Part shown: positions 1 to 42,573 of the stretch, one piece after another
Layout: every line of letters begins with the position of its first letter
Position numbering within the stretch: position 1 is the first letter of the stretch
Source: Dehalococcoidia bacterium
GTDB lineage: Bacteria; Chloroflexota; Dehalococcoidia; UBA2979
Assembly: GCA_965247925.1 (NCBI GenBank)
Contig: CBDFIB010000004.1
Span: 288,539 to 352,538 of the forward strand
Direction of reading: 5' to 3'
Length of the DNA stretch: 64,000 nucleotides
The notes under the pieces: model-generated
Databases searched by the model: none
Seen by the model: only the letters and a program-made list of their open reading frames with translations
What the model was told of the DNA's origin: nothing
Position numbers and translations under genes: made by a program

Positions 1-1512
1 GGCGGCGTGCGTGCTGGCGTGGCGGGCGACGCCCTCGAGGCTGCGGGCCGTGTCCAGCAGCTCGTTCACGGCCTCGTCCTCCTCGGCGGCGCGGCGCAGG
101 TCCTCGACCTCGTCGAGCGCCCGCTTGAGGGTGATGCCGAGCGAGTTCGGCACGAGCCGGGCGACGCGGTCGACCTCGCCGTAGGACATGCCGAGGGCGC
201 GCCCGCTATCGCGGATCGCGGCCTTCGCGCCGAGCGTCCCGAAGGTGACGATCTGCGCGACGCGGTCGCGGCCGTAGCGTTCGGCGGCGTAGCGGATCAC
301 CTCCTCGCGGCGGTCGTCGGCGAAGTCGAAGTCGACGTCCGGCATCTCGCGCCGCTCGGGGTTGAGGAAGCGCTCGAAGACCAGCCGGTACTGCGTCGGC
401 TCGATGTCGGTGACGTCGAGGCAGTAGAGCACGATCGAGGCGGCTGCCGAGCCGCGCACGCCCATCGGGATGCGCTGCTCGTGTGCGAAGCGGGCGATGT
501 CGCGGACGATCAGGATGTACTCGGCGAACCCGGTCTCGGCGATCACCTCGAGCTCGTAGTGCAGCCGCTCGCGCTGCGCCTCGCCCGGATCGTGGTAACG
601 CCGCTCGAGGCCTTCCTCGCAGAGCCGCCGCAGGTAGTCGTCGGCGGTCATGCCCTCGGGAATGCCGGGGTCCGGCAGCAGCGTGCGCCCGAAGTCGAGG
701 CGGATGTCGACCTGCTCGGCGATGCGCGCGGTGGCGTCGCAGGCCTCGGGCAGCTCGGGCATGAGCGCCCGCATCTCCTCCTCGGAGCGCAGGTAGAAGG
801 TGCCGCCCTCGAGCTTCATGCGATCGGTCTCGTGAATCGTCGAGTTCGTGCCGATGCAGAGCAGCACGTCGTGCGGGTGCTCCTGCTCGGGCGCCGTGTA
901 GTGCGAGTCGTTGGTCAGCACCAGCGGCAGATCGAGGTCGCGCGCGAGCGAGACGAGCCGCGGGTTGAGGCGGCTGAACTGCTCCTGGCCGTGCTCCTGC
1001 AGCTCGACGTAGTAGCGGTCCCGGAAGACGTCGGAGTACCAGCCGAGCGCCTCGCGGGCGTCGGGCTCGCGCTCTTCCTTGAGCGCCGTCCTCACCTCGC
1101 CCGAGGGGCAGGCGGAGAGCGCGATCAGGCCCTCGTTGTGCTGTTCGAGCAGCTCGCGGTCGACGCGCGGGCGGTAGTAGAAGCCCTCGAGGTGGGAGGC
1201 GGTGGAGAGCTTGAGCAGGTTGCGGTAGCCGGTCTCGTTCTGCGCGAGCAGGGTGAGGTGGAAGGGCGTGCGCGAGGCGGCGCCGCGGTCGAAGCGGCTG
1301 CCCGGCGCCACGTAGCCCTCGAGGCCGATGATCGGCTTGATCCCGTTGGCGCGTGCCTCCTCGTAGAACTGGAGGGCGCCGTGCAGGTTGCCGTGGTCGG
1401 TGATCGCGAGCGCGTCCTGTCCGAGCGCCTTCGCGCGCGCGACGAGGTCGGGGATGGTGCTGAGCCCGTCCAGCAGTGAGTACTCGGTGTGGGTATGGAG
1501 GTGCGTGAACAT
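1..1512 (-). CDS. dnaE: DNA polymerase III alpha subunit DnaE, N-terminal PHP-domain part; start codon at 1510-1512, gene runs off the window start
   Basis: Reverse-strand translation from 1512 reads MFTHLHTHTEYSLLDGLSTIPDLVARAKALGQDALAITDHGNLHGALQFYEEARANGIKPIIGLEGYV..., the canonical DnaE PHP N-terminus. The ORF track misses it because it exits the window. Confidence 0.9.
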   Translation of the reverse strand, partial: MFTHLHTHTEYSLLDGLSTIPDLVARAKALGQDALAITDHGNLHGALQFYEEARANGIKPIIGLEGYVAPGSRFDRGAASRTPFHLTLLAQNETGYRNLLKLSTASHLEGFYYRPRVDRELLEQHNEGLIALSACPSGEVRTALKEEREPDAREALGWYSDVFRDRYYVELQEHGQEQFSRLNPRLVSLARDLDLPLVLTNDSHYTAPEQEHPHDVLLCIGTNSTIHETDRMKLEGGTFYLRSEEEMRALMPELPEACDATARIAEQVDIRLDFGRTLLPDPGIPEGMTADDYLRRLCEEGLERRYHDPGEAQRERLHYELEVIAETGFAEYILIVRDIARFAHEQRIPMGVRGSAAASIVLYCLDVTDIEPTQYRLVFERFLNPERREMPDVDFDFADDRREEVIRYAAERYGRDRVAQIVTFGTLGAKAAIRDSGRALGMSYGEVDRVARLVPNSLGITLKRALDEVEDLRRAAEEDEAVNELLDTARSLEGVARHASTHAA

Positions 1513-1670
1513 CGGCTCTTTGGTACCGACAATCTGCTTATGTCGTTACGCGAACGCGCGTGCGGGGCCTGCCCGCAGGGTGCCGGATCAGGGGGTGCGC
1601 TGTCAATGGCGGGGTGGCGGTTGCAACGCTCCTGAGACGGCGTTGTGGCGAAGTCCAAACCAGGGACGGA

Positions 1671-2144
1671 TTAGTCGAATATCCAGCCCTCAGCCTGTAT
1701 GAGGCCGATTAGCCCGGTGTGAAGGATGTCCAGTGCGTCACATACGGAGGGGATCTTCGGACTCCTTGCAGTCCCACCCTTCTCGCCAGTCACAACGGTA
1801 GCTCCTCGGAGGCGGGCCACCGCTATGACGAACGGATCGGCGCGATTGCGTCGGGTACCCGACATGACTAGGCGCTCGTGGGAAGCCAGGATTTGGCGGA
1901 CATCCTGCGCGACGAAGTTGTCGGTGTGGACGATGATCCCATCTCGCCTGTCGTTCAGCCACTCCTTCAGCGAGTCGTCATGCTCATCGATCTCTTCGAA
2001 TACCTCCTCAGAAACCAGAAAACGCCGCTCGTCAGCCAAAGCGTCGATTCGCTCCCAGAAGCGCGGGAAGTGATCAGGGGGATAGTGGCGGATCCACCCA
2101 TCCATCAGCGCGCTCGAGTCGATAGAGTACTTCGTCGATGTCAT
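1671..2144 (-). CDS. DUF4411-family protein (PIN-like), partner of the upstream ImmA/IrrE peptidase
   Basis: 157 aa with the FPRFWERID motif typical of DUF4411 (FPGFWDWL-like). 4-nt ATGA overlap with the upstream gene. GC about 58% against ~70% for the window. Confidence 0.75.
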   Translation of the reverse strand: MTSTKYSIDSSALMDGWIRHYPPDHFPRFWERIDALADERRFLVSEEVFEEIDEHDDSLKEWLNDRRDGIIVHTDNFVAQDVRQILASHERLVMSGTRRNRADPFVIAVARLRGATVVTGEKGGTARSPKIPSVCDALDILHTGLIGLIQAEGWIFD

Positions 2145-3364
2145 CGAAGGACGGCGTCGAGGGCCGCGAGCTGGCTGTAACGGATTCCAAGATAGTCAGC
2201 CACGTCGAGTGAACTGATCCGGTCGCTTTGGTACGCGCCTATCACACTCGATGCGTACCCATGTCCGAGATCGCGGGCCTTGACCACGTAGTACGGGGGC
2301 CCTCCATCCGACTCGCGATTCCGTTGGTGCTCCCGCTCGCGCGCCTCCTCGTAGGCAGAGTCCAGATCCGGCTTGCGAGCCCAGTACACGTTCCACGAGG
2401 CACGATCCAGACTCACGAGGCGCAGGAGTACCGCCTCCGACGAAACCCCGTACCTCCTCGAGAGCGTTGCGAGGTCTTCTAGTGGCCACCAGTGATCGGA
2501 CCCCTGATCGCGAACGAGAATATCGTCCAGTAGCGCTTCCCTTGGAAGCAATGTGCTCGCTGCGATTGCGTTGCAGCGATGCTCGATCGCTGCGTTGCTT
2601 GGCAAGCGGCTCTCGCGAGGATCGGGAGGCTCACGCAGGTCGCAGATTCCGCCGAGGTTTAGTGACAGGTGCGCGAGTTCGTGGAGAAGAGTAAAGAGCC
2701 GCCTGCGGGGTCGATCCGAACCGTTGAGCGCGATCACAGGGAACGGCCAATCGCTGACCGAGAACCCGTGCATCTCGGCCGGCTTTACGTTGCGGGTCTG
2801 TAGCACAAGGATGCCCTTGGCTTCGATAGCAGGGATCCAGAGGTTCAAGGCAGCACCTGGGCCTCCTGCCCGCCGCTGGTCCTCAAGGGCAACCCCGGCG
2901 AACTCGCGCAGTAATTCGCCAGACAGATCTGGGGTGGCATCAGGTGCCAGCTCCGGCAGGGGGGTTGGGGTGGCGAGCGAGTCGCTGCTGATATCGTAGA
3001 GATCAAGCAGCACGTCGCGTTGGGCCAGAGCTCGACCGAACTCGGCCAAGAGCTCGGGACTGGGCCTTGGAGGCCCGGCTCCGGCTGTACGGAAGTCGCG
3101 CAGCGCGTCGAACCCTTGCTCGTTTGGTGGGTCGGACAAGAGCAACACCGCAAGCGGTCGGTGGTAGACCTTTCCCGCCTTCCGGAGTTGGACGAGCGTC
3201 GGTGCTAGGTCGCCGGATTCCCATCGCTGCAATGTCGAGAGCGAAACGCCGACTTTCTTTGCAGCGCGAGCTTTGTCCAGGCCTGCGCTCAGGCGTGCCC
3301 ACGTGATGACCCGCGGTTCGACGGCAATGCGTACGGTCGCCAACGTACCCCTCCGGTTCCGCAT
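2141..3364 (-). CDS. HTH (XRE) domain fused to an ImmA/IrrE-family (COG2856) zinc metallopeptidase
   Basis: N-terminal HTH (KKVGVSLSTLQRWESG) and a HEXXH motif (LLHELAHLSL) in a 407-aa protein. Forms an operon with the DUF4411 gene. Confidence 0.8.
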   Translation of the reverse strand: MRNRRGTLATVRIAVEPRVITWARLSAGLDKARAAKKVGVSLSTLQRWESGDLAPTLVQLRKAGKVYHRPLAVLLLSDPPNEQGFDALRDFRTAGAGPPRPSPELLAEFGRALAQRDVLLDLYDISSDSLATPTPLPELAPDATPDLSGELLREFAGVALEDQRRAGGPGAALNLWIPAIEAKGILVLQTRNVKPAEMHGFSVSDWPFPVIALNGSDRPRRRLFTLLHELAHLSLNLGGICDLREPPDPRESRLPSNAAIEHRCNAIAASTLLPREALLDDILVRDQGSDHWWPLEDLATLSRRYGVSSEAVLLRLVSLDRASWNVYWARKPDLDSAYEEAREREHQRNRESDGGPPYYVVKARDLGHGYASSVIGAYQSDRISSLDVADYLGIRYSQLAALDAVLR

Positions 3365-3449
3365 GATACGACCGGAATGAGATCGTGACTCACTGCCTCA
3401 GTGGACAGCGGATCGACTTGGGGAGGCGGAGCGAGTGCCGGAGCGCCCG

Positions 3450-4622
3450 CTAGCGCGGAAGCCCGAGGCCGCGCTGGGCGATGATGTTGCGCTGGATCTC
3501 GGAGGTGCCCGCCTCGATCGTGGCGCCGGTCGAGGTGAGGTAGTGGCGGGCGAAGGCGCCGCCGATCGGCGCGCCGCCGCCGCCGGGGGCGATCAGGCCT
3601 GCGAGTCCTAAGAGGCGCACGCCCGTGCCGGCGATGCGCTGCGTAAGTTCCGAGCCGTACACCTTCGAGACCGAGGCTTCGTGGTTCGGGGAGATGCCCT
3701 GCGTCTGCATCCAGGGGATGCGCTGCGCGACGTTGAAGCCGACCTCCAGCTCGATCCAGCGGTCCGCCAGCTCGTAGCGCACCTGCTCGCGGCGCTCGCC
3801 CTCGCCGGCGTGCTCGTGCGCGAAGCTCACGAGGCCCTCGATGTGGCGGCGGCCGCGCGCGAAGGCGGCAACGCCCGAGCGCTCGAAGTCGAGCGACGAG
3901 GCGACGTGGTACCAGCCGCGGTGCTCCGGGCCGACGCGCTGCTCGATCGGGATGCGCACGTCGTGGAGCAGCACCTCGGAGAGCTGGCGCTCGCCGGCGA
4001 GGTTCTCGATCGGGCGGATCTCGACGCCGGGCGTGTCCATCGGCAGGGCGAAGGTGGAGAGGCCGCGGTGCTTGGGTGCGCCCGGGTCGGTGCGGGCGGC
4101 GAGCCAGCCCATGGTCGCGCGCTCCGCGCCGGCGACCCAGGTCTTGAGGCCGTTGATCACGTACTCGTCGCCGTCGCGCACGGCGCGCGTCTGGATCGAG
4201 GCGAGGTCGGAGCCCGCGCCCGGCTCGGAGTAGAGGGCGCACCAGCGGTCCTCGCCGGCGGCGATGCGCGGCAGGTAGAGCCGCCGTTGCTCCTCGCTGC
4301 CGTGTTGCATGATCGCGGGGCCGGCCGAGGTGACGCCGACGCCGCCTCCGCCGGGCGCGTCCTGGTAGGCGAGCTCCTCGTTGAGCACGTACTGCTGCAG
4401 GTAGGAGGCGTCGAGGCCGCCGTGCTCGCGCGGCCAGGCCATCGCCAGCCAGCGCCGATCGCCGAGCGCGCGGGCGACGCGTTGCGCGAGGGCGGCGCGC
4501 TCGTCGGAGTCGGCGGGCTCGATCAGGCCTCGCTGGGACCAGTCGGCGGGCAACAGGTCGGCGAGGACGGCGCGCAAGTCCTGGCGGAAGCGCTCCTCCT
4601 CGGGGGAGAGGGCGAAGTCCAT
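3450..4622 (-). CDS. acyl-CoA dehydrogenase family protein
   Basis: 390 aa. ACAD motifs: YSEPGAGSDLASIQTRA, the C-terminal SEIQRNIIAQRGLGLPR signature, and a DEYVINGLKTWV region. Confidence 0.9.
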   Translation of the reverse strand: MDFALSPEEERFRQDLRAVLADLLPADWSQRGLIEPADSDERAALAQRVARALGDRRWLAMAWPREHGGLDASYLQQYVLNEELAYQDAPGGGGVGVTSAGPAIMQHGSEEQRRLYLPRIAAGEDRWCALYSEPGAGSDLASIQTRAVRDGDEYVINGLKTWVAGAERATMGWLAARTDPGAPKHRGLSTFALPMDTPGVEIRPIENLAGERQLSEVLLHDVRIPIEQRVGPEHRGWYHVASSLDFERSGVAAFARGRRHIEGLVSFAHEHAGEGERREQVRYELADRWIELEVGFNVAQRIPWMQTQGISPNHEASVSKVYGSELTQRIAGTGVRLLGLAGLIAPGGGGAPIGGAFARHYLTSTGATIEAGTSEIQRNIIAQRGLGLPR

Positions 4623-5766: not shown

Positions 5767-8361
5767 ATGGCCTTCGGCGTTCTGAGGAAGCTGGTCGGCG
5801 ACCCCAACGAGCGCGCGCTCAAGCAGATCGCGCCGCTGGTCCGGGAGATCAACGACCTCGAGCCTGAGATCACGGCGCTCAGCGACGAGGCGCTGTGCGA
5901 GCGTACGGATCGCTTCCGCGCGCGCCTGCGCGACGGCGAGACGCTGGACGACATGCTCGCGGAGGCGCTCGCCGTCGCCCGCGAGGCGGTCCACCGTCAT
6001 GTCGGCGAGCGCGCCTACGACGTGCAGCTCACCGGCGCCGTCGCGCTGCACCGCGGCAACGTCACCGAGATGCGCACCGGCGAGGGCAAGACGCTCGTCG
6101 CCACGCTCGCGCTCTACGTGAACGCCCTCGAGGGCGAGGGCGCGCACCTGGTCACGGTCAACGACTATCTGGCGGGACGCGAGCCGCAGTGGTACGGGCC
6201 GGCGCTCGACGCGCTGGGCCTGACCCTGGGCGTGATCCAGCACGAGGGCGCTTCCGTCTACTCGCGCGAGCGCATCTCCGAGCAGCCGGGCCGCGAGCAC
6301 CTGCTGGCCGTCCCGCGCCGCGAGGCCTACCAGGCGGACGTGACCTACGGCACGAACAACGAGTTCGGCTTCGACTATCTGCGCGACAACATGGTGCAGG
6401 TGGCGGATCAACGCGTGCAGCGCAGCCGCCACTACGCGATCGTCGACGAGGCGGACTCGGTGCTGATCGACGAGGCGCGGACGCCGCTGATCATCTCCGG
6501 CGCGCAGCAGGACGACCTCTCGCTTTACCCGCGCTTCAACGCGCTGGTGCCGCGCCTGCAGCGCGACACGCACTACACGGTCGAGGAGCGCACACGCTCG
6601 GTGCACCTCACCGAGGCGGGCATCGAGGCCCTCGAGCGTGGGCTGGGCATCGACAACATCTTCTCCACGGAGCACTTCCGGCTGACGCGCTACATGGAGG
6701 CGGCGCTCAAGGCGCACATCATCTACCAGCGCGACCGCGAGTACGTGGTGAGCGACGGCCACGTCGTGATCGTCGACGAGTTCACGGGCCGCCTGATGGA
6801 GGGACGCCGCTGGTCTGACGGGCTGCACCAGGCCGTCGAGGCCAAGGAGGGCGTGAAGGTCCAGCAGGAGTCCGTGACCTACGCGACGATCACGCTCCAG
6901 AACTTCTTCCGCCTCTACGAGAAGCTCGCCGGCATGACCGGCACCGCCGTCACCGACGCCGAGGAGCTGCACGAGATCTACGGTCTCGAGGTGATCGTCG
7001 TGCCGACGAATCTGCCGATGGTCCGCGAAGACATGTCGGACCTCGTCTACCGCTCGCAGCGCGAGAAGTTCGAGGCGGTGATCGAGGATGTGCTGGAGCG
7101 CCACCGCGAGGAGCGCCCGGTCCTCGTCGGCACGGTCTCGATCGAGGACTCCGAGCACCTCGCGGATCTGCTGCAGCGCCGCGGCGTGGAGCACGAGGTG
7201 CTGAACGCGAAGCAGCACCAGCGCGAGGCGGCGATCATCGCGCGCGCCGGGCAGCCCGGCGCGGTCACGATCGCCACGAACATGGCCGGACGCGGCACCG
7301 ACATCAAGCTCGGCGCGGGCGTCGCCACCAACGGCGGCCTGCACATCATCGGCACCGAGCGCCACGAGTCGCGACGCGTCGACAACCAGCTCCGAGGGCG
7401 CTCCGGCCGCCAGGGCGACCCCGGCTCCTCGCGCTTCTTCGTCTCTTTCGAGGACGACGTGATGAAGCGCTTCGCGCCGGACTGGATGCCGGGCATGATG
7501 AGCAAGCTCGGCATGAGCGAGGGCATGCCGCTCGAATCGAAGATGGTCACGCGCGCCATCGAGTCCGCGCAGGCGCGCGTCGAGGCGTACCACTTTGACA
7601 CCCGCAAGCACGTCGTCGAGTACGACGACGTAATGAACCAGCATCGCGACGTGATCTACGGCGAGCGCAACAAGGTGCTCGCGGGCGAGTCGATGCGCGA
7701 GAGCGTGCTGGGGATGGTGCACGACGAGATCGAGGCGCTGGCGCGCGAGCACATCGAGAACGCGCCCGCCGATCCGGACGCCTTCCACCTCGCACTGCAG
7801 GCGATCGTGCCGCTGCGCAGCGCGCTGCCGATCGACGAGGTGCGCAACCGCCCCGTAGAGGCGCTGCTGGAAGAGGTCGGCGAGCTCGTGGGTGAGCGCT
7901 ACGAGGAACTCGAGGACGAGGTCGGCGAGGAGGCGCAGCGGCAGCTCGAGCGCTTCGTGCTGCTGCGCACGATCGACCTGCTCATGGTGCAGCACCTCAC
8001 CGCCGTCGCCGAGCTGCGCCAGGGCATCGGACTGCGCGCCTACGGCCAGGCGAACCCGCTCGTCGCCTACAAGCACGAGGCGCACGACATGTGGGAGCAG
8101 TTGCTCGGCAACATCCGCGCGGCGGTCGCTCGCCAGATCTTCCACGTGCGCCCGGTCGCGATGCCTCGGGCGGAGCCGATCATCCCGCGCAACGCGCTGG
8201 CGTCCGGCCCGGGCGACCCGGACGGGGCCGAGGACGATGGCGGAGGCGGCGGCGTGGCGACGGCGACGCGGCGGACGCGCGTGCGCAAGGTAGGCCGCAA
8301 CGCGCCCTGCCCTTGCGGCTCCGGCAAGAAGTACAAGCGCTGCCACGGGGGCTCGATATGA
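5767..8361 (+). CDS. secA: preprotein translocase subunit SecA
   Basis: 864 aa. MAFGVLRKLVGDPNERALK..., Walker/DEAD-like motifs, and the C-terminal zinc-binding tail CPCGSGKKYKRCHG. Confidence 0.95.
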   Translation: MAFGVLRKLVGDPNERALKQIAPLVREINDLEPEITALSDEALCERTDRFRARLRDGETLDDMLAEALAVAREAVHRHVGERAYDVQLTGAVALHRGNVTEMRTGEGKTLVATLALYVNALEGEGAHLVTVNDYLAGREPQWYGPALDALGLTLGVIQHEGASVYSRERISEQPGREHLLAVPRREAYQADVTYGTNNEFGFDYLRDNMVQVADQRVQRSRHYAIVDEADSVLIDEARTPLIISGAQQDDLSLYPRFNALVPRLQRDTHYTVEERTRSVHLTEAGIEALERGLGIDNIFSTEHFRLTRYMEAALKAHIIYQRDREYVVSDGHVVIVDEFTGRLMEGRRWSDGLHQAVEAKEGVKVQQESVTYATITLQNFFRLYEKLAGMTGTAVTDAEELHEIYGLEVIVVPTNLPMVREDMSDLVYRSQREKFEAVIEDVLERHREERPVLVGTVSIEDSEHLADLLQRRGVEHEVLNAKQHQREAAIIARAGQPGAVTIATNMAGRGTDIKLGAGVATNGGLHIIGTERHESRRVDNQLRGRSGRQGDPGSSRFFVSFEDDVMKRFAPDWMPGMMSKLGMSEGMPLESKMVTRAIESAQARVEAYHFDTRKHVVEYDDVMNQHRDVIYGERNKVLAGESMRESVLGMVHDEIEALAREHIENAPADPDAFHLALQAIVPLRSALPIDEVRNRPVEALLEEVGELVGERYEELEDEVGEEAQRQLERFVLLRTIDLLMVQHLTAVAELRQGIGLRAYGQANPLVAYKHEAHDMWEQLLGNIRAAVARQIFHVRPVAMPRAEPIIPRNALASGPGDPDGAEDDGGGGGVATATRRTRVRKVGRNAPCPCGSGKKYKRCHGGSI

Positions 8362-9236
8362 GCGCCGCACAGGGTGGTTCGCGGCGGGGGGCCGCCACCA
8401 CAAAGCCCAGCAGCGCCGCGCCGCGCGAGTCCGTGCACGTGGACTTCGCAGCCAGCGGGTCCGACCCGGCCGACGGGGAGGCTCCCCCGCCGCTCGATGC
8501 CGAAGCGGGAGTCCGCACGTTCCTCGAGGCGGTCAAGCAGGGCGAGCCGTGGTACCCGGCGATGCTCGACGTGATCGCGCGCTGGGTGACGCCGGAGGAG
8601 CAGGTCAAGGGCGTGGTCTACCGCTACCTGATCGCCGGCGAGGCCTTCGACTGGCTGCGCCTCGCGGAGCGCCTGATCGGCGCCGCGGGCAAGGCGATCC
8701 CGGCCGCCGAGGCGGAGCGGCTGCTGTTCGACGGCTTGCCGCCGCCCGGCCATGACGAGAGCGAGGAGGCGTTCGCCCGCGCGATCGGCCACGAGAAGCA
8801 TCGCGCGCACCTCAACTTCCAGTACGGCGTGACCGTCGAGGAGGTGCTGCTGCTGCAGGCGGAGCTGGACCTCGTGAAGGCGCGCAACCTCGACGGCCCG
8901 CGCGGAACGCCGCCCGACATCGCGGCCTACGAACGCGTCTACGGCCGCTCGCTGGACGAGCTGATCGTCGAGTACCGGGCGGAGACCGGCCAGGCGATGC
9001 CGCAGCGGGTGCTGCAATCGCAGTTGCGCGCCTTCACCTACTGGTGCTCGAAGTTCCGCTTCCGCCTCGCCGAACCGGCGCGCGTCGCCTCGGACACGCG
9101 CAGGGCGCTGGCGCTGCTCTCGCGCATGGAGGCGGAGCGCATCCCGCGCGAGCGCCGCCTGCCCGGCGTCGACCGCGAGGTGATCGAGGCGAGGGCGCGG
9201 GCTCCACGGCGCCGCAGCCGCGCGAAGGCGCGCTAG
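8358..9236 (+). CDS. hypothetical protein, translationally coupled to secA
   Basis: ATG at 8358 overlaps the secA stop (ATGA). 292-aa coding-like ORF with no recognisable motifs. Confidence 0.5.
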   Translation: MSAAQGGSRRGAATTKPSSAAPRESVHVDFAASGSDPADGEAPPPLDAEAGVRTFLEAVKQGEPWYPAMLDVIARWVTPEEQVKGVVYRYLIAGEAFDWLRLAERLIGAAGKAIPAAEAERLLFDGLPPPGHDESEEAFARAIGHEKHRAHLNFQYGVTVEEVLLLQAELDLVKARNLDGPRGTPPDIAAYERVYGRSLDELIVEYRAETGQAMPQRVLQSQLRAFTYWCSKFRFRLAEPARVASDTRRALALLSRMEAERIPRERRLPGVDREVIEARARAPRRRSRAKAR

Positions 9237-36257: not shown

Positions 36258-37513
36258 ATGACCCTGCACGTTGGCGACGACTGGTCCGAAGACCACCACG
36301 ACATCCAGCTCATGAACGAGGCCGGCGAGCAGCTCGCCGCCAGGCGGCTGCCCGAAGGCGTCAAAGGCGTCGCCGCCCTGCACGAGTTGATCGCGCAGCA
36401 CGCCTCGGACCCGGGCGAGGTCGTGGTCGGGATCGAGACCGAGCGCGGGCCCTGGCCGGGTCTCGGCCCTGCTCGCGGCCGGCTACCGCGTCTACGCGAT
36501 CAACCCGCGCTCGGCGGCGCGCTACCGCGAGCGCCACCACCTCAGCGGCGCCAAGTCCGACGCCGGCGACGGCAAGCTGCTCGCCGACCTGGTACGCACC
36601 GACCGCCACAACCACCGCCCGGTCGCCGGCGACAGCGACGAGGCCGCCGCGGTGCGCATCCTCGCCCGCGCCCACCAGCAGTTGATCTGGGACCGCGTCC
36701 GCCAGACCAACCGGCTGCGCAGCGCGCTGCGCGAGTACTTTCCGGGCGCCCTGGAGGCCTTCCCCAAGCTCGCGCACGGCGACGCGCTGGGCGTGCTGGG
36801 ACGGCGCCAGGCCCGGGTGAGGCGGCACGGCTGAGCATCACCCAGATCCGCGCTGCGCTGCGCCGCGGCGGACGCAAGCGCAACCTCGAGCAGCGCGCCG
36901 CCGCGGTCCGCGCGGCGTTGCGCTCCCCGCAGCTCGGGGCGCCGCCCGCGGTAAGCCGAGCGTTCGCCGCGAGCACCCGCGCGCCACGGTCGGTCAGATC
37001 GGCGAGATCAACCGTCAGATCAAGGAGCTCGAGGCCGAGCTCACGAGCCATTTTGAGCAGCACCCGGACGCCGAAATCTACCGCTCCCTGCCCGGTCTCG
37101 GCGTCGTGCTCGGTGCCCGGGTGCTCGGCGAGTTCGGGGACGACCCCGAACGCTACGAGTCGGCGAAGTCCCGCAGGAACTACGCCGGCACCTCGCCGCT
37201 CACCGTAGCATCGGGACGCAAACGCAGCGTGCGCGCCCGCTTCGTGCGCAACCGCCGGCTCTCCGACGCCGTGGACCGCTGGGCGCTCTGCTCGCTGCGG
37301 GCGAGCCCGGGCTGCCACGACTTCTACCAGCGGCGGCGAGCCGCCGGCGACCTCCATCACCAGGCGCTGCGCGCCCTCGGCAACCGCCTCGTCGGCTACC
37401 TCCACGGCTGCCTCAGGACCCGCGCCTGCTACGACGAGGCCACCGCCTGTTCGCGCACCGCCACGACCGCGAGCAGCTCGCCGCTTGATCAGTTAGCACC
37501 ATGGGGTGTCTAA
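36258..37513 (+). pseudogene. degenerate IS110-family transposase (different lineage from 11343..12437), split over three reading frames
   Basis: N-terminus MTLHVGDDWSEDHHDIQLMNEAGE in ORF 36258..37208, middle RILARAHQQLIWDRVRQTNRLRSALREYFP in 36652..36834, C-terminus LGEFGDDPERYESAKSRRNYAGTSP in 37106..37513. Confidence 0.75.

Positions 37514-41353: not shown

Positions 41354-42573
<1,220 letters not shown>

Follow-up and report, generated by a model that had tools for sequence, protein, structure and literature searches.

The two genes that lie upstream of dnaE in the window (the whole 64-kb stretch of DNA that was analyzed) probably form a Rosmer-like type II toxin-antitoxin (TA) or abortive-infection module, in which a PIN toxin is paired with an HTH-ImmA/IrrE peptidase. 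This PIN-nuclease/HTH-zinc-peptidase cassette belongs to a known, widespread kind. It is foreign but not recent: it entered in an ancestor of this Chloroflexota lineage.

Layout of the cassette and features of its two proteins

The HTH-peptidase gene comes first and the DUF4411 gene second, and both are co-oriented, adjacent, and overlapping, an arrangement kept in 17/17 loci (Table 1). The two open reading frames share a 4-bp ATGA overlap at positions 2141-2144 that can be read directly from the letters (...CTT CGA TGA / ATG ACA TCG...), and the coordinates given for this coupled pair by an earlier, sequence-only reading are exact. The domain identities put forward at that time were also recovered by Pfam, i.e., HTH_3, PF06114, and PF14367. 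Purifying selection acts on both genes (dN/dS of 0.09-0.14 at a dS of ~1), with a dN/dS of 0.14 for the HTH-peptidase gene. Across the window, no other defense genes were found next to the cassette. An exact-match look-up of the DUF4411 protein of the window returned no identical record, and near-identical homologs were used instead.

Table 1. Coordinates of the cassette, its domains, and its flanks in the window
Feature	Position	Strand	Remarks
XRE-HTH + ImmA/IrrE (M78) zinc peptidase gene	2141..3364	-	407 aa, ATG start
DUF4411 gene	1671..2144	-	157 aa, ATG start; predicted VapC-like PIN-fold nuclease; proposed toxin
XRE-type helix-turn-helix domain, residues 22-72	3149..3301	-	Pfam HTH_3, 4.4e-9
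ImmA/IrrE M78 peptidase domain, residues 197-316	2417..2776	-	Pfam Peptidase_M78 PF06114, 2.3e-17
HExxH zinc site, H228, E229, H232	2669-2683	-	Within the M78 domain
C-terminal helical region, residues ~320-407	2144..2407	-	Conserved, without a Pfam model
dnaE 5' part (PHP domain onward)	1..1512	-	Translation MFTHLHTHTEYSLLDG...; native flank downstream of the cassette
Acyl-CoA dehydrogenase (ACAD) gene	3450..4622	-	Pfam ACAD N, M, and C domains; GC3 0.96; native-composition flank upstream
Spacer, ACAD stop to antitoxin start	3365..3449	-	Presumed cassette promoter/operator; read from sequence
Spacer, DUF4411 stop to dnaE start	1513..1670	-	dnaE leader element 1536-1563; TTGACA box 1601-1606

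We propose that the 407-aa HTH-peptidase protein is an RmrA-like antitoxin and autorepressor. It has full-length homologs of ~395 aa, and its AF2 model (pLDDT 87.8) places helices at residues 17-66, in an HTH domain that Foldseek matched to the HTH domains of P22 c2, SinR, DdrO, and C-protein. The linker at residues ~80-100 (FDALRDFR) is conserved, but its model is poor. The peptidase domain exceeded the PF06114 cutoff by a wide margin (63.4 bits versus 22) and carries H228-E229-L-A-H232 followed by E261-x2-C264-N265, so that the HExxH motif and the downstream Glu ligand are both present. An alignment of 37 homologs shows no variation at H228, H232, E261, C264, or N265 and at least 90% conservation of E229. 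The best Foldseek matches were IrrE (3dti) and PprI (8sln/8slm), with a probability of 1.0, an E value of ~3e-3, and 23-26% identity over ~180 columns; the multidomain nature of the query keeps the TM scores against these structures low. Sequence-profile matches of the peptidase region to 8slm (PprI) and 3dte (IrrE) reached 1e-9. The C-terminal region, with helices at 324-406 modeled confidently by AF2, aligns over its full length with chain A of PDB 9vzy and contains columns that are invariant in the homolog alignment (W324, Y327, Y338, P356, R364, G367, Y370, D387, and L392, among others); it is a candidate toxin-binding or sensor domain. Among the PADLOC models, 15 RmrA models match the protein (best 2.1e-14, residues 15-347), as does capP (6.5e-13).

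For the DUF4411 protein, the PF14367 match (2.5e-33, 115.6 bits versus a cutoff of 23.5) was full-length, with residues 6-156 covering positions 1-159 of the 159-position profile. It is predicted to take a VapC-type PIN fold (Rossmann-like alpha/beta/alpha), and 40 homologs all share the four acidic residues of the predicted active site (D9, E47, D103, and E121). The earlier view, in which a PIN-like effector is partnered by a peptidase/HTH protein, is supported. At 50% identity, the DUF4411 family falls into about 6,600 clusters. The family is nearly absent from phage collections, which fits a role in host defense, short of proof. No PADLOC RmrT model matched the DUF4411 protein, for which the sole PADLOC match was a marginal one to AbiEi (0.013); standard defense annotation would consequently not call the locus a system. 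A search of the literature found only five papers that mention DUF4411 and no experimental work on any DUF4411 toxin.

The closest structural counterpart of the pair is PDB entry 9vzy, in which an HTH cro/C1-type protein and a DUF4411 family protein are present in one complex (3 + 6 chains). The two window proteins are each 38.8% identical over their full length to the 9vzy partners, and the profile match of the HTH-peptidase protein to chain A reached 1.7e-105. Physical pairing of the two proteins is thus shown for homologs, i.e., at the family level. A second entry, 9vzz, contains DUF4411 alone as a catalytic D-to-A mutant in which the mutated residue is equivalent to D9, and the fact that it was solved as such a mutant is an indirect hint of DUF4411 toxicity. 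No paper for 9vzy or 9vzz was found in the literature search.

Flanking sequences and composition

The spacer upstream of the antitoxin gene contains a palindrome, CACTG-N3-CAGTG (positions 3391-3403), in a putative operator. At the same position, L083 carries a different palindrome, GTAGGCGCCTAC, and the last ~35 nucleotides before the antitoxin ATG are conserved in L081-L083. On the other side of the cassette, the leader motif GCACGC(G/C)CGTTCGCGTAAC... also precedes dnaE in relatives whose site is empty. The motif is thus part of the native dnaE sequence and delimits the insertion on its inner side. A search of positions 1400-3600 against Rfam at E≤1 gave no match, so no catalogued RNA corresponds to the conserved dnaE leader. 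Over the same interval, a scan for consensus sigma-70 promoters found none, and the only two terminator-like matches, no more than expected by chance, were both inside ORFs, with none in the spacer between the DUF4411 gene and dnaE.

No other 1694-bp stretch of the 64 kb has a GC content as low as that of the pair, which is ~3.5 standard deviations below the mean (0.704, standard deviation 0.025). The sequence-only reading had reported about 58% GC in a background of about 70%; the anomaly stands, but the pair has 61.8% (58.4% in the DUF4411 gene and 63.0% in the HTH-peptidase gene) against 70.5% for the window. Likewise, GC3 is 0.70-0.71 in the cassette versus 0.90-0.96 in ACAD, prs, and secA. 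The cassette is similarly atypical in L083, L086, L170, and L171, and its composition shows no sign of amelioration.

History of the insertion upstream of dnaE

Related genomes share a GHMP kinase-aspartate kinase-dnaE gene order, and at ~17 of these loci the gap between aspartate kinase and dnaE measures 84-272 bp and holds no insert. Since these sites are empty in related lineages, the cassette is of foreign origin. All four members of the immediate clade that were sampled carry the pair at the dnaE site, as do L170, L171, and L086; in six lineages the pair is co-oriented with dnaE and lies 64-158 bp upstream of it. Identity between the dnaE part in the window and the full-length genes is 98% for L082 and 92% for L083, and it is 79-82% for the dnaE N terminus of more distant pair-bearing relatives. 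According to the dnaE tree and the presence or absence of the pair, the dnaE-site pair loci form one dnaE clade with 100% support. The most parsimonious history is thus that the pair was inserted once, long ago, and then inherited vertically. In an RmrA tree built to tell one insertion from several, the deep nodes had low support (23-60%), and it was the dnaE tree with presence or absence that decided the matter. Two members of the clade, L087 and L088, lack the pair and have an unchanged dnaE region, corresponding to one loss of the cassette.

The surroundings match the earlier description, with dnaE on one side and ACAD, prs, and secA on the other, but these core metabolic genes came to adjoin the site through a rearrangement specific to the clade. 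In all other lineages, aspartate kinase takes the place of ACAD, and it is the ancestral neighbor. ACAD was also tried as a synteny anchor in representative genomes, where the best match was 55% identical and 0/80 loci were near dnaE, prs, or secA; the scan is uninformative because the ACAD family is rich in paralogs.

These data also bear on a recently acquired, strain-specific mobile island that would be missing from close relatives, a reading that is very improbable and already largely refuted. The strong compositional anomaly without amelioration would suit it, and the 99.7-100% identity of the cassette to that of L082, within flanks that are 92-98% identical, could mean recent transfer. 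However, the pair is shared by the immediate clade and by L170, L171, and L086 within a single dnaE clade, and the cassette alleles of the window and L083 are separated by a dS of ~1. Hallmarks of mobility are also lacking: the window has no tRNA and no integrase, the flanking direct and inverted repeats are short and at chance level, and there is no transposase within 6 kb, the nearest being 6-8 kb away at positions 9392-12437. The sequence-only reading had considered the pair laterally acquired and proposed looking for its absence from close relatives. The foreign origin is upheld, yet the event is old and the sampled close relatives all carry the pair upstream of dnaE. Conservation at this position with native GC had been named as the outcome that would weaken a mobile-module interpretation; we found the conservation, but the GC is not native.

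The identity of the cassette is decoupled from that of its flanks, which suggests allele exchange. The high divergence of the L083 cassette was rejected as proof of allele replacement, since a flank GC3 of ~0.96 suppresses dS; for the same reason, only the L082 case, with a cassette closer than its flanks, requires recombination or chimerism. Several copies also look damaged: the toxin gene of L082 has five insertions, and the antitoxin genes of L086, L170, and L168 have frameshifts. This could reflect either weak selection or long-read assembly errors. If the frameshift in L086 is real, its intact toxin gene next to a frameshifted antitoxin gene is awkward for a strict TA model.

Away from dnaE, the pair also occurs at mnmE and hisS sites, in integrative and conjugative elements (ICEs), and on plasmids, including conjugative ones, in five phyla. 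Every chromosomal site contains exactly the two genes, with no remnants of an element. On conjugative elements, the homologous pairs adjoin type IIG restriction-modification (RM) and Hma defense systems, and in ICEs they sit in the cargo/defense part beside RM and Hma. ICE-like regions with homologs also encode relaxase, TrwB, and TraG. The recurrence in a defense context that had been proposed from sequence is borne out by these neighbors.

Proposed mechanism and alternative explanations

For this cassette, we infer toxicity, an RNA target, neutralization, autorepression, a peptidase trigger and substrate, and an anti-phage effect, which could be combined as follows. DUF4411 would be a metal-dependent PIN nuclease, most likely an RNase, whose free form would arrest growth. 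The HTH-peptidase protein would bind and neutralize it, while its N-terminal HTH would repress the cassette's own promoter. The ImmA/IrrE peptidase, for which the sequence-only reading had proposed a sensor/derepressor role, is the likely trigger module and, upon a cue from phage or DNA damage, would cleave itself or its partner, thereby freeing the toxin and derepressing the operon. The source was most likely a mobile gene pool of roughly 60% GC, in which the pair rides conjugative elements and plasmids beside RM and Hma. A single insertion upstream of the dnaE promoter/leader in an ancestor of the clade was then followed by vertical inheritance, during which purifying selection acted on the cassette and copies were now and then lost, degraded, or replaced through allele exchange.

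A working TA could also be kept purely as a selfish addiction module, because its loss is penalized, without phage protection or any other benefit to the host. We consider this unlikely. The retention of the cassette at one chromosomal site across the clade, without adjoining defense genes in the window, is in line with addiction, and the sporadic decay and the single loss suit a dispensable element. Many chromosomal VapBC-type TAs are not known to have a role in defense, which also counts in its favor. Nonetheless, conjugative elements carry homologs directly beside bona fide defense systems, and anti-phage activity has been shown by experiment for the Rosmer class. The low dN/dS over a dS of ~1 further indicates sustained selection, although addiction alone could yield the same.

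The constant position next to dnaE raises another alternative, in which the cassette would be a domesticated DNA-damage or replication-stress switch similar to IrrE/DdrO or ImmA/ImmR, with read-through raising dnaE transcription and DUF4411 acting as an accessory nuclease. In addition to the co-orientation and short distance in six lineages and the lack of a terminator-like site between cassette and dnaE, this reading could draw on the nearest solved peptidase folds, which are IrrE and PprI, including an ssDNA complex, and on another Rosmer TA that targets the replisome clamp. However, dnaE retains a conserved leader and -10-like boxes of its own that do not differ from those in empty-site relatives, the pair occurs at many places away from dnaE, and its loss in L087 and L088 left the dnaE region unchanged. 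Furthermore, the slot upstream of dnaE holds unrelated cassettes elsewhere (a BglII-type RM, YajQ, and YceI) and thus looks like a permissive hotspot, as opposed to a site of functional coupling. Such a domesticated switch is accordingly highly doubtful. A replication link through RipA and DnaN was set aside as analogy only, RipA being unrelated to DUF4411. We see a slim chance that a TA was co-opted as a replication-stress switch coupled to dnaE, with an IrrE/PprI-like peptidase-repressor that ssDNA or damage would activate, where stress or phage would bring about both release of the PIN nuclease and dnaE read-through, with the slot refreshed by allele exchange. If true, this refreshing would explain why the GC3 of the cassette never ameliorated.

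Finally, the pair could be the leftover switch of a decayed integrative element, i.e., an ImmR/ImmA-type repressor-antirepressor fusion whose excision and transfer genes were lost. ImmA/ImmR modules do control ICEBs1 and prophages, and homologs are found within ICE-like regions that encode transfer functions. Yet the bare two-gene content of every chromosomal site, the position of the pair in the cargo/defense part of ICEs, and the invariant partnership with a PIN nuclease together with the 9vzy complex point to a TA, and this origin is barely credible. A Rosmer-like TA or abortive-infection module remains our preferred reading.

With regard to function, the cassette adds little, as its architecture was predicted in 2017, TA and anti-phage functions have been validated for its class, and a complex structure has been deposited. 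Its value is in a clean natural history, with the dnaE-leader slot as a cassette hotspot in Dehalococcoidia-like Chloroflexota. Here, a TA entered once, survived substantial host divergence under purifying selection, and keeps the composition of the mobile pool, providing a useful case for how small defense/TA cassettes persist and exchange without a recombinase. Rosmer-like PIN systems are now also seen in uncultivated high-GC Chloroflexota, where immunity is almost unstudied.

Comparison with known systems

The combination of HTH-DUF955(COG2856) and DUF4411.1 was predicted to be a "three-component" TA module by Matelska, Steczkiewicz and Ginalski in 2017 (PMC5499597). The window pair shares its families, gene order, lengths (~395 and ~157 aa), and conserved catalytic residues with that module and 9vzy, but it is only 39% identical to 9vzy and its host is a high-GC Chloroflexota bacterium. 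While DUF4411.1 is mostly monocistronic in Actinobacteria (Matelska et al. 2017, PMC5499597), every copy seen here is paired.

The RosmerTA systems, composed of a Zn-peptidase antitoxin and a toxin, were validated as anti-phage in 2022 (Millman et al. 2022) and as a TA class in 2023-2025 (including Ernits et al. 2023), and Ernits et al. 2023 noted ImmA-antitoxin nodes that are paired with PIN-like toxins. With this validation and the homolog complex 9vzy in the PDB, the sequence-only description of such modules as not experimentally characterized is out of date. Like RosmerTA, the window cassette is a two-gene operon whose antitoxin joins an XRE HTH to an ImmA-type Zn-peptidase, and RmrA models cover most of this protein. 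In contrast, the window toxin is PIN-like and falls outside the PADLOC RmrT families, and the characterized RmrTs, a membrane-depolarizing protein (phage Kita) and the DnaN-targeting RipA (RipAB, S. pneumoniae), are not PIN nucleases. The gene order also differs, being antitoxin-first in the window and toxin-first in RipAB, and the match to the NCBIfam spr1629 model (23.8 bits) is far below its cutoff of 335. Because no RmrT model matches, the locus is Rosmer-like by architecture and not a catalogued RosmerTA.

Compared to VapBC, the DUF4411 protein is only 11-20% identical to VapCs and has an additional invariant KIPxVC motif, and the window antitoxin is a protein of ~400 aa with a metallopeptidase, whereas VapB is a protein of ~80 aa of the AbrB, RHH, or Phd type. 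The coupling of a COG2856/M78 peptidase with HExxH to an XRE HTH is shared with IrrE/DdrO (Deinococcus), ImmA/ImmR (ICEBs1), and CapP/CapH (CBASS). However, repressor and protease are separate proteins in those three systems and fused in the window protein, which has no counterpart of the GAF-like sensor domain of IrrE; in its stead, there is a conserved helical domain of another type at the C terminus. The output differs as well: a nuclease toxin is proposed for the window cassette, as opposed to a regulon, an element, or CBASS for IrrE/DdrO, ImmA/ImmR, and CapP/CapH.

A coupled pair of proposed antitoxin and toxin genes of low GC content

The proposed antitoxin gene encodes a 407-aa protein with Pfam matches to HTH_3 over residues 22-72 and to Peptidase_M78/ImmA-IrrE over residues 197-316 (63.4 bits, cutoff 22), and the product of the proposed toxin gene is matched over its full length by DUF4411 (115.6 bits, cutoff 23.5). 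The two ORFs overlap in an ATGA and form a translationally coupled unit. The DUF4411 protein has a PIN fold with an intact catalytic tetrad, and its HTH-metallopeptidase partner keeps its zinc motifs intact. ORFs, coordinates, domains and flanks are exactly as described in the sequence-only reading, which had also given the pair a GC content of about 58%. The pair is indeed anomalous, being the lowest-GC stretch of its length within 64 kb, but its value is 61.8% (DUF4411 gene, 58.4%; HTH-peptidase gene, 63.0%) compared to 70.5% for the window. Third codon positions set the pair apart far more clearly (GC3 of 0.70-0.71 in the pair versus 0.90-0.96 in its neighbours).

Features of the window and inserts in the gap between aspartate kinase (AK) and dnaE at related loci
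Feature	Position	Strand
dnaE, 5' end (flank of pair)	1..1512	-
dnaE leader element	1536-1563	-
DUF4411 gene, 157 aa (ORF call)	1671..2144	-
ATGA overlap of the pair	2141-2144	
HTH-M78 peptidase gene, 407 aa (ORF call)	2141..3364	-
Candidate operator palindrome	3391-3403	
Acyl-CoA dehydrogenase (ACAD) gene, then prs, secA (other flank)	3450-4622 (ACAD)	
381-aa ORF	8091-9236	+
DDE_Tnp_1_4 transposase	9392-10861	-
IS110-family transposase	11163-12437	+
TPR-repeat protein	12618-13907	+
ACAD paralog	14168-15394	+
Ms_AS-4 match	37087-37168	-
ACAD fragment match, 23 aa	40984-41052	
ACAD paralog	41356-42573	-
BglII-type RM system, low GC	AK-dnaE gap, L100	
YajQ/DUF520	AK-dnaE gap, L101 and L131	
YceI + glyoxalase	AK-dnaE gap, L095	opposite
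Chlorite-dismutase-like (Cld-like) gene	AK-dnaE gap, L099	
DUF4268 + hemerythrin	AK-dnaE gap, L087/L088	

The same pairing was found in 17/17 inspected loci (Chloroflexota-like metagenomic contigs; Bradyrhizobium, Leptospira and Loigolactobacillus plasmids; one IMG/VR contig), each with an HTH-M78 gene of ~390-407 aa immediately preceding a co-oriented DUF4411 gene. Homologues of both proteins form a physical complex: in PDB entry 9vzy, a 393-aa "HTH cro/C1-type domain-containing protein" (three chains; full-length family-profile match, E 1.7e-105) is joined by a "DUF4411 family protein" (six chains; E 1.5e-47), and each of the two shares 38.8% identity with its window counterpart. Entry 9vzz contains DUF4411 by itself, carrying Ala in place of the first catalytic Asp. 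A literature search found no paper for either entry.

Elsewhere in the window, a second low-GC zone (9392-13907, GC 0.59-0.65) carries the two transposases and the TPR-repeat protein. The syntenic close relative L082 has HSP20, DnaJ, MerR and ClpB genes there instead, and the zone is therefore a strain-specific IS insertion cluster. The 381-aa ORF, of native GC, directly follows secA and overlaps its 3' end; it had no Pfam match, and at its position L081-L083 have a ~290-aa gene call. Ms_AS-4, an sRNA family from actinobacteria, also matched above the Rfam gathering threshold (59.2 versus 50 bits, E 1.6e-6), which is unexpected in a Chloroflexota-like genome.

Distribution of the pair and history of the dnaE slot

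The layout secA-prs-ACAD-[pair]-dnaE recurs in three contigs, L081-L083, whose flanks are 91-96% identical. More distant copies (60-69% identical) lie in part on conjugative-element-like regions of ~60% GC, near relaxase, TrwB and TraG genes, where one adjoins a type IIG RM enzyme and an HKD-Snf2 helicase and another an Hma system. Others occupy unrelated chromosomal sites near mnmE or hisS, and those of L086, L170 and L171 lie directly upstream of dnaE with AK on the other side. The DUF4411 family comprises ~6,600 clusters at 50% identity, is present on 18 PLSDB plasmids (12 of them conjugative) and hardly occurs in phage collections. Homologue context look-ups were decisive for synteny. ACAD failed as an anchor because the family, rich in paralogs, is highly expanded in the lineage; the two further copies in the window are 43-45% identical to the one beside the pair.

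A metagenome scan with the dnaE N-terminus recovered the conserved order GHMP kinase-AK-dnaE-(CLC)-MoxR in ~30 loci, including marine relatives of 33% GC. The AK-dnaE gap is 84-272 bp without insert in ~17 loci, and elsewhere it holds inserts unrelated to the pair; judged from L086-L101, L131 and L170, it is a hotspot for cassettes in this Chloroflexota lineage. The dnaE tree unites every pair-bearing locus in a single clade (bootstrap 100%), in which only L087/L088 lack the pair. The sequence-only call of a TA or Abi-like module of foreign origin, with a PIN effector, is right; reading it as a recent, strain-specific insertion is wrong. Most parsimoniously, a single insertion in the clade ancestor was inherited vertically with one loss or replacement, and a rearrangement in the window sub-clade swapped AK for ACAD/prs/secA.

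The insertion point lies upstream of dnaE's own leader, since an element reading GCACGC(C/G)CGTTCGCGTAAC... is found in empty-site relatives too. This ~28-nt element (GCACGC[C/G]CGTTCGCGTAACGAYRTARGC) includes a CGTT-N5-AACG inverted repeat, precedes the dnaE start by 15-65 nt in the window, L083, L086-L101, L156, L170 and L171, and is kept across lineages down to ~67% dnaE identity, with -10-like hexamers just upstream. It matched no Rfam family and probably marks where a conserved 5' leader of dnaE begins, or serves as an operator. Around the pair, neither a tRNA nor an integrase nor flanking repeats were found.

Persistent composition, allele divergence and possibly damaged copies

Although dnaE N-termini are only 79-82% identical between pair-bearing sub-lineages (~20% protein divergence), cassette GC3 is 0.60-0.78 in every lineage (window, L083, L086, L170, L171), the same as in ICE-borne copies, compared to 0.92-0.98 in the host. 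Cassette identity is decoupled from flank identity, and sliding profiles step at the cassette edges. Between the window and L082, the cassette is 99.7-100% identical within 92-98% flanks, which requires recent recombination or an assembly chimera. Against L083, it is 76-79% within 88-96% flanks, which could reflect allele replacement, or relaxed synonymous constraint relative to flanks with GC3 of ~0.96. Purifying selection acts on the two window genes (dN/dS against the L083 alleles, 0.14 for the antitoxin and 0.09 for the toxin gene; dS ~1).

In L082, the DUF4411 gene (10001-10580, equivalent to window 1671-2144) has ~5 substitutions, clustered at indels, and is thrown out of frame by five insertions (+18, +6, +1, +74 and +2 bp); a 35-nt part of the 74-bp insert matches window 36414-36448 with 91% identity. 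Next to it, the antitoxin gene shows 99.75% identity to the window copy and zero indels. These insertions reflect either genuine inactivation of the toxin or an artefact of long-read assembly. In L086 (~7600-7650), L170 (~2990) and L168 (~8028), the HTH-peptidase gene is broken by a single frameshift each, with the downstream DUF4411 frame open; in these metagenome assemblies of 3x to 91x coverage, sequencing error is possible. Because all these copies come from long-read assemblies, we grade them as possible, not proven, decay.

Proposed mechanism and relation to known systems

The DUF4411 protein would act as a VapC-like RNase toxin that the 407-aa protein neutralises through direct binding, while repressing the operon via its HTH; allele-specific palindromes ~30-45 nt ahead of the start are candidate operators. 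The peptidase, by comparison with IrrE/PprI, ImmA and CapP, may be the trigger module, freeing the toxin upon a phage- or DNA-damage-derived signal and leading to growth arrest or abortive infection. We consider the TA core of this model likely; a real anti-phage role is more tentative, at slightly under an even chance.

The pair belongs to an already known module type, and what is less ordinary is only its slot upstream of dnaE, the lack of compositional amelioration over a long residence, and the decoupling of cassette from flank divergence. Its description as uncharacterised is out of date given the 9vzy complex and earlier work: Matelska et al. 2017 (PMC5499597) predicted the exact module, an HTH-DUF955 fusion with DUF4411.1, to be a three-component TA, and are cited by Millman et al. 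2022 for the configuration of RosmerTA, the "Zn-peptidase antitoxin + toxin" class that the latter named and showed to defend against phages. According to Ernits et al. 2023, ImmA antitoxins form a hub whose partners include PIN-like toxins. Since the window toxin had no match to PADLOC models of the RosmerTA toxin RmrT, the pair is Rosmer-like by architecture and not a catalogued RosmerTA. RipAB is a Rosmer TA whose toxin targets DnaN and is unrelated to the DUF4411 toxin. The window toxin resembles VapC in its fold but is paired with an antitoxin of a very different kind.
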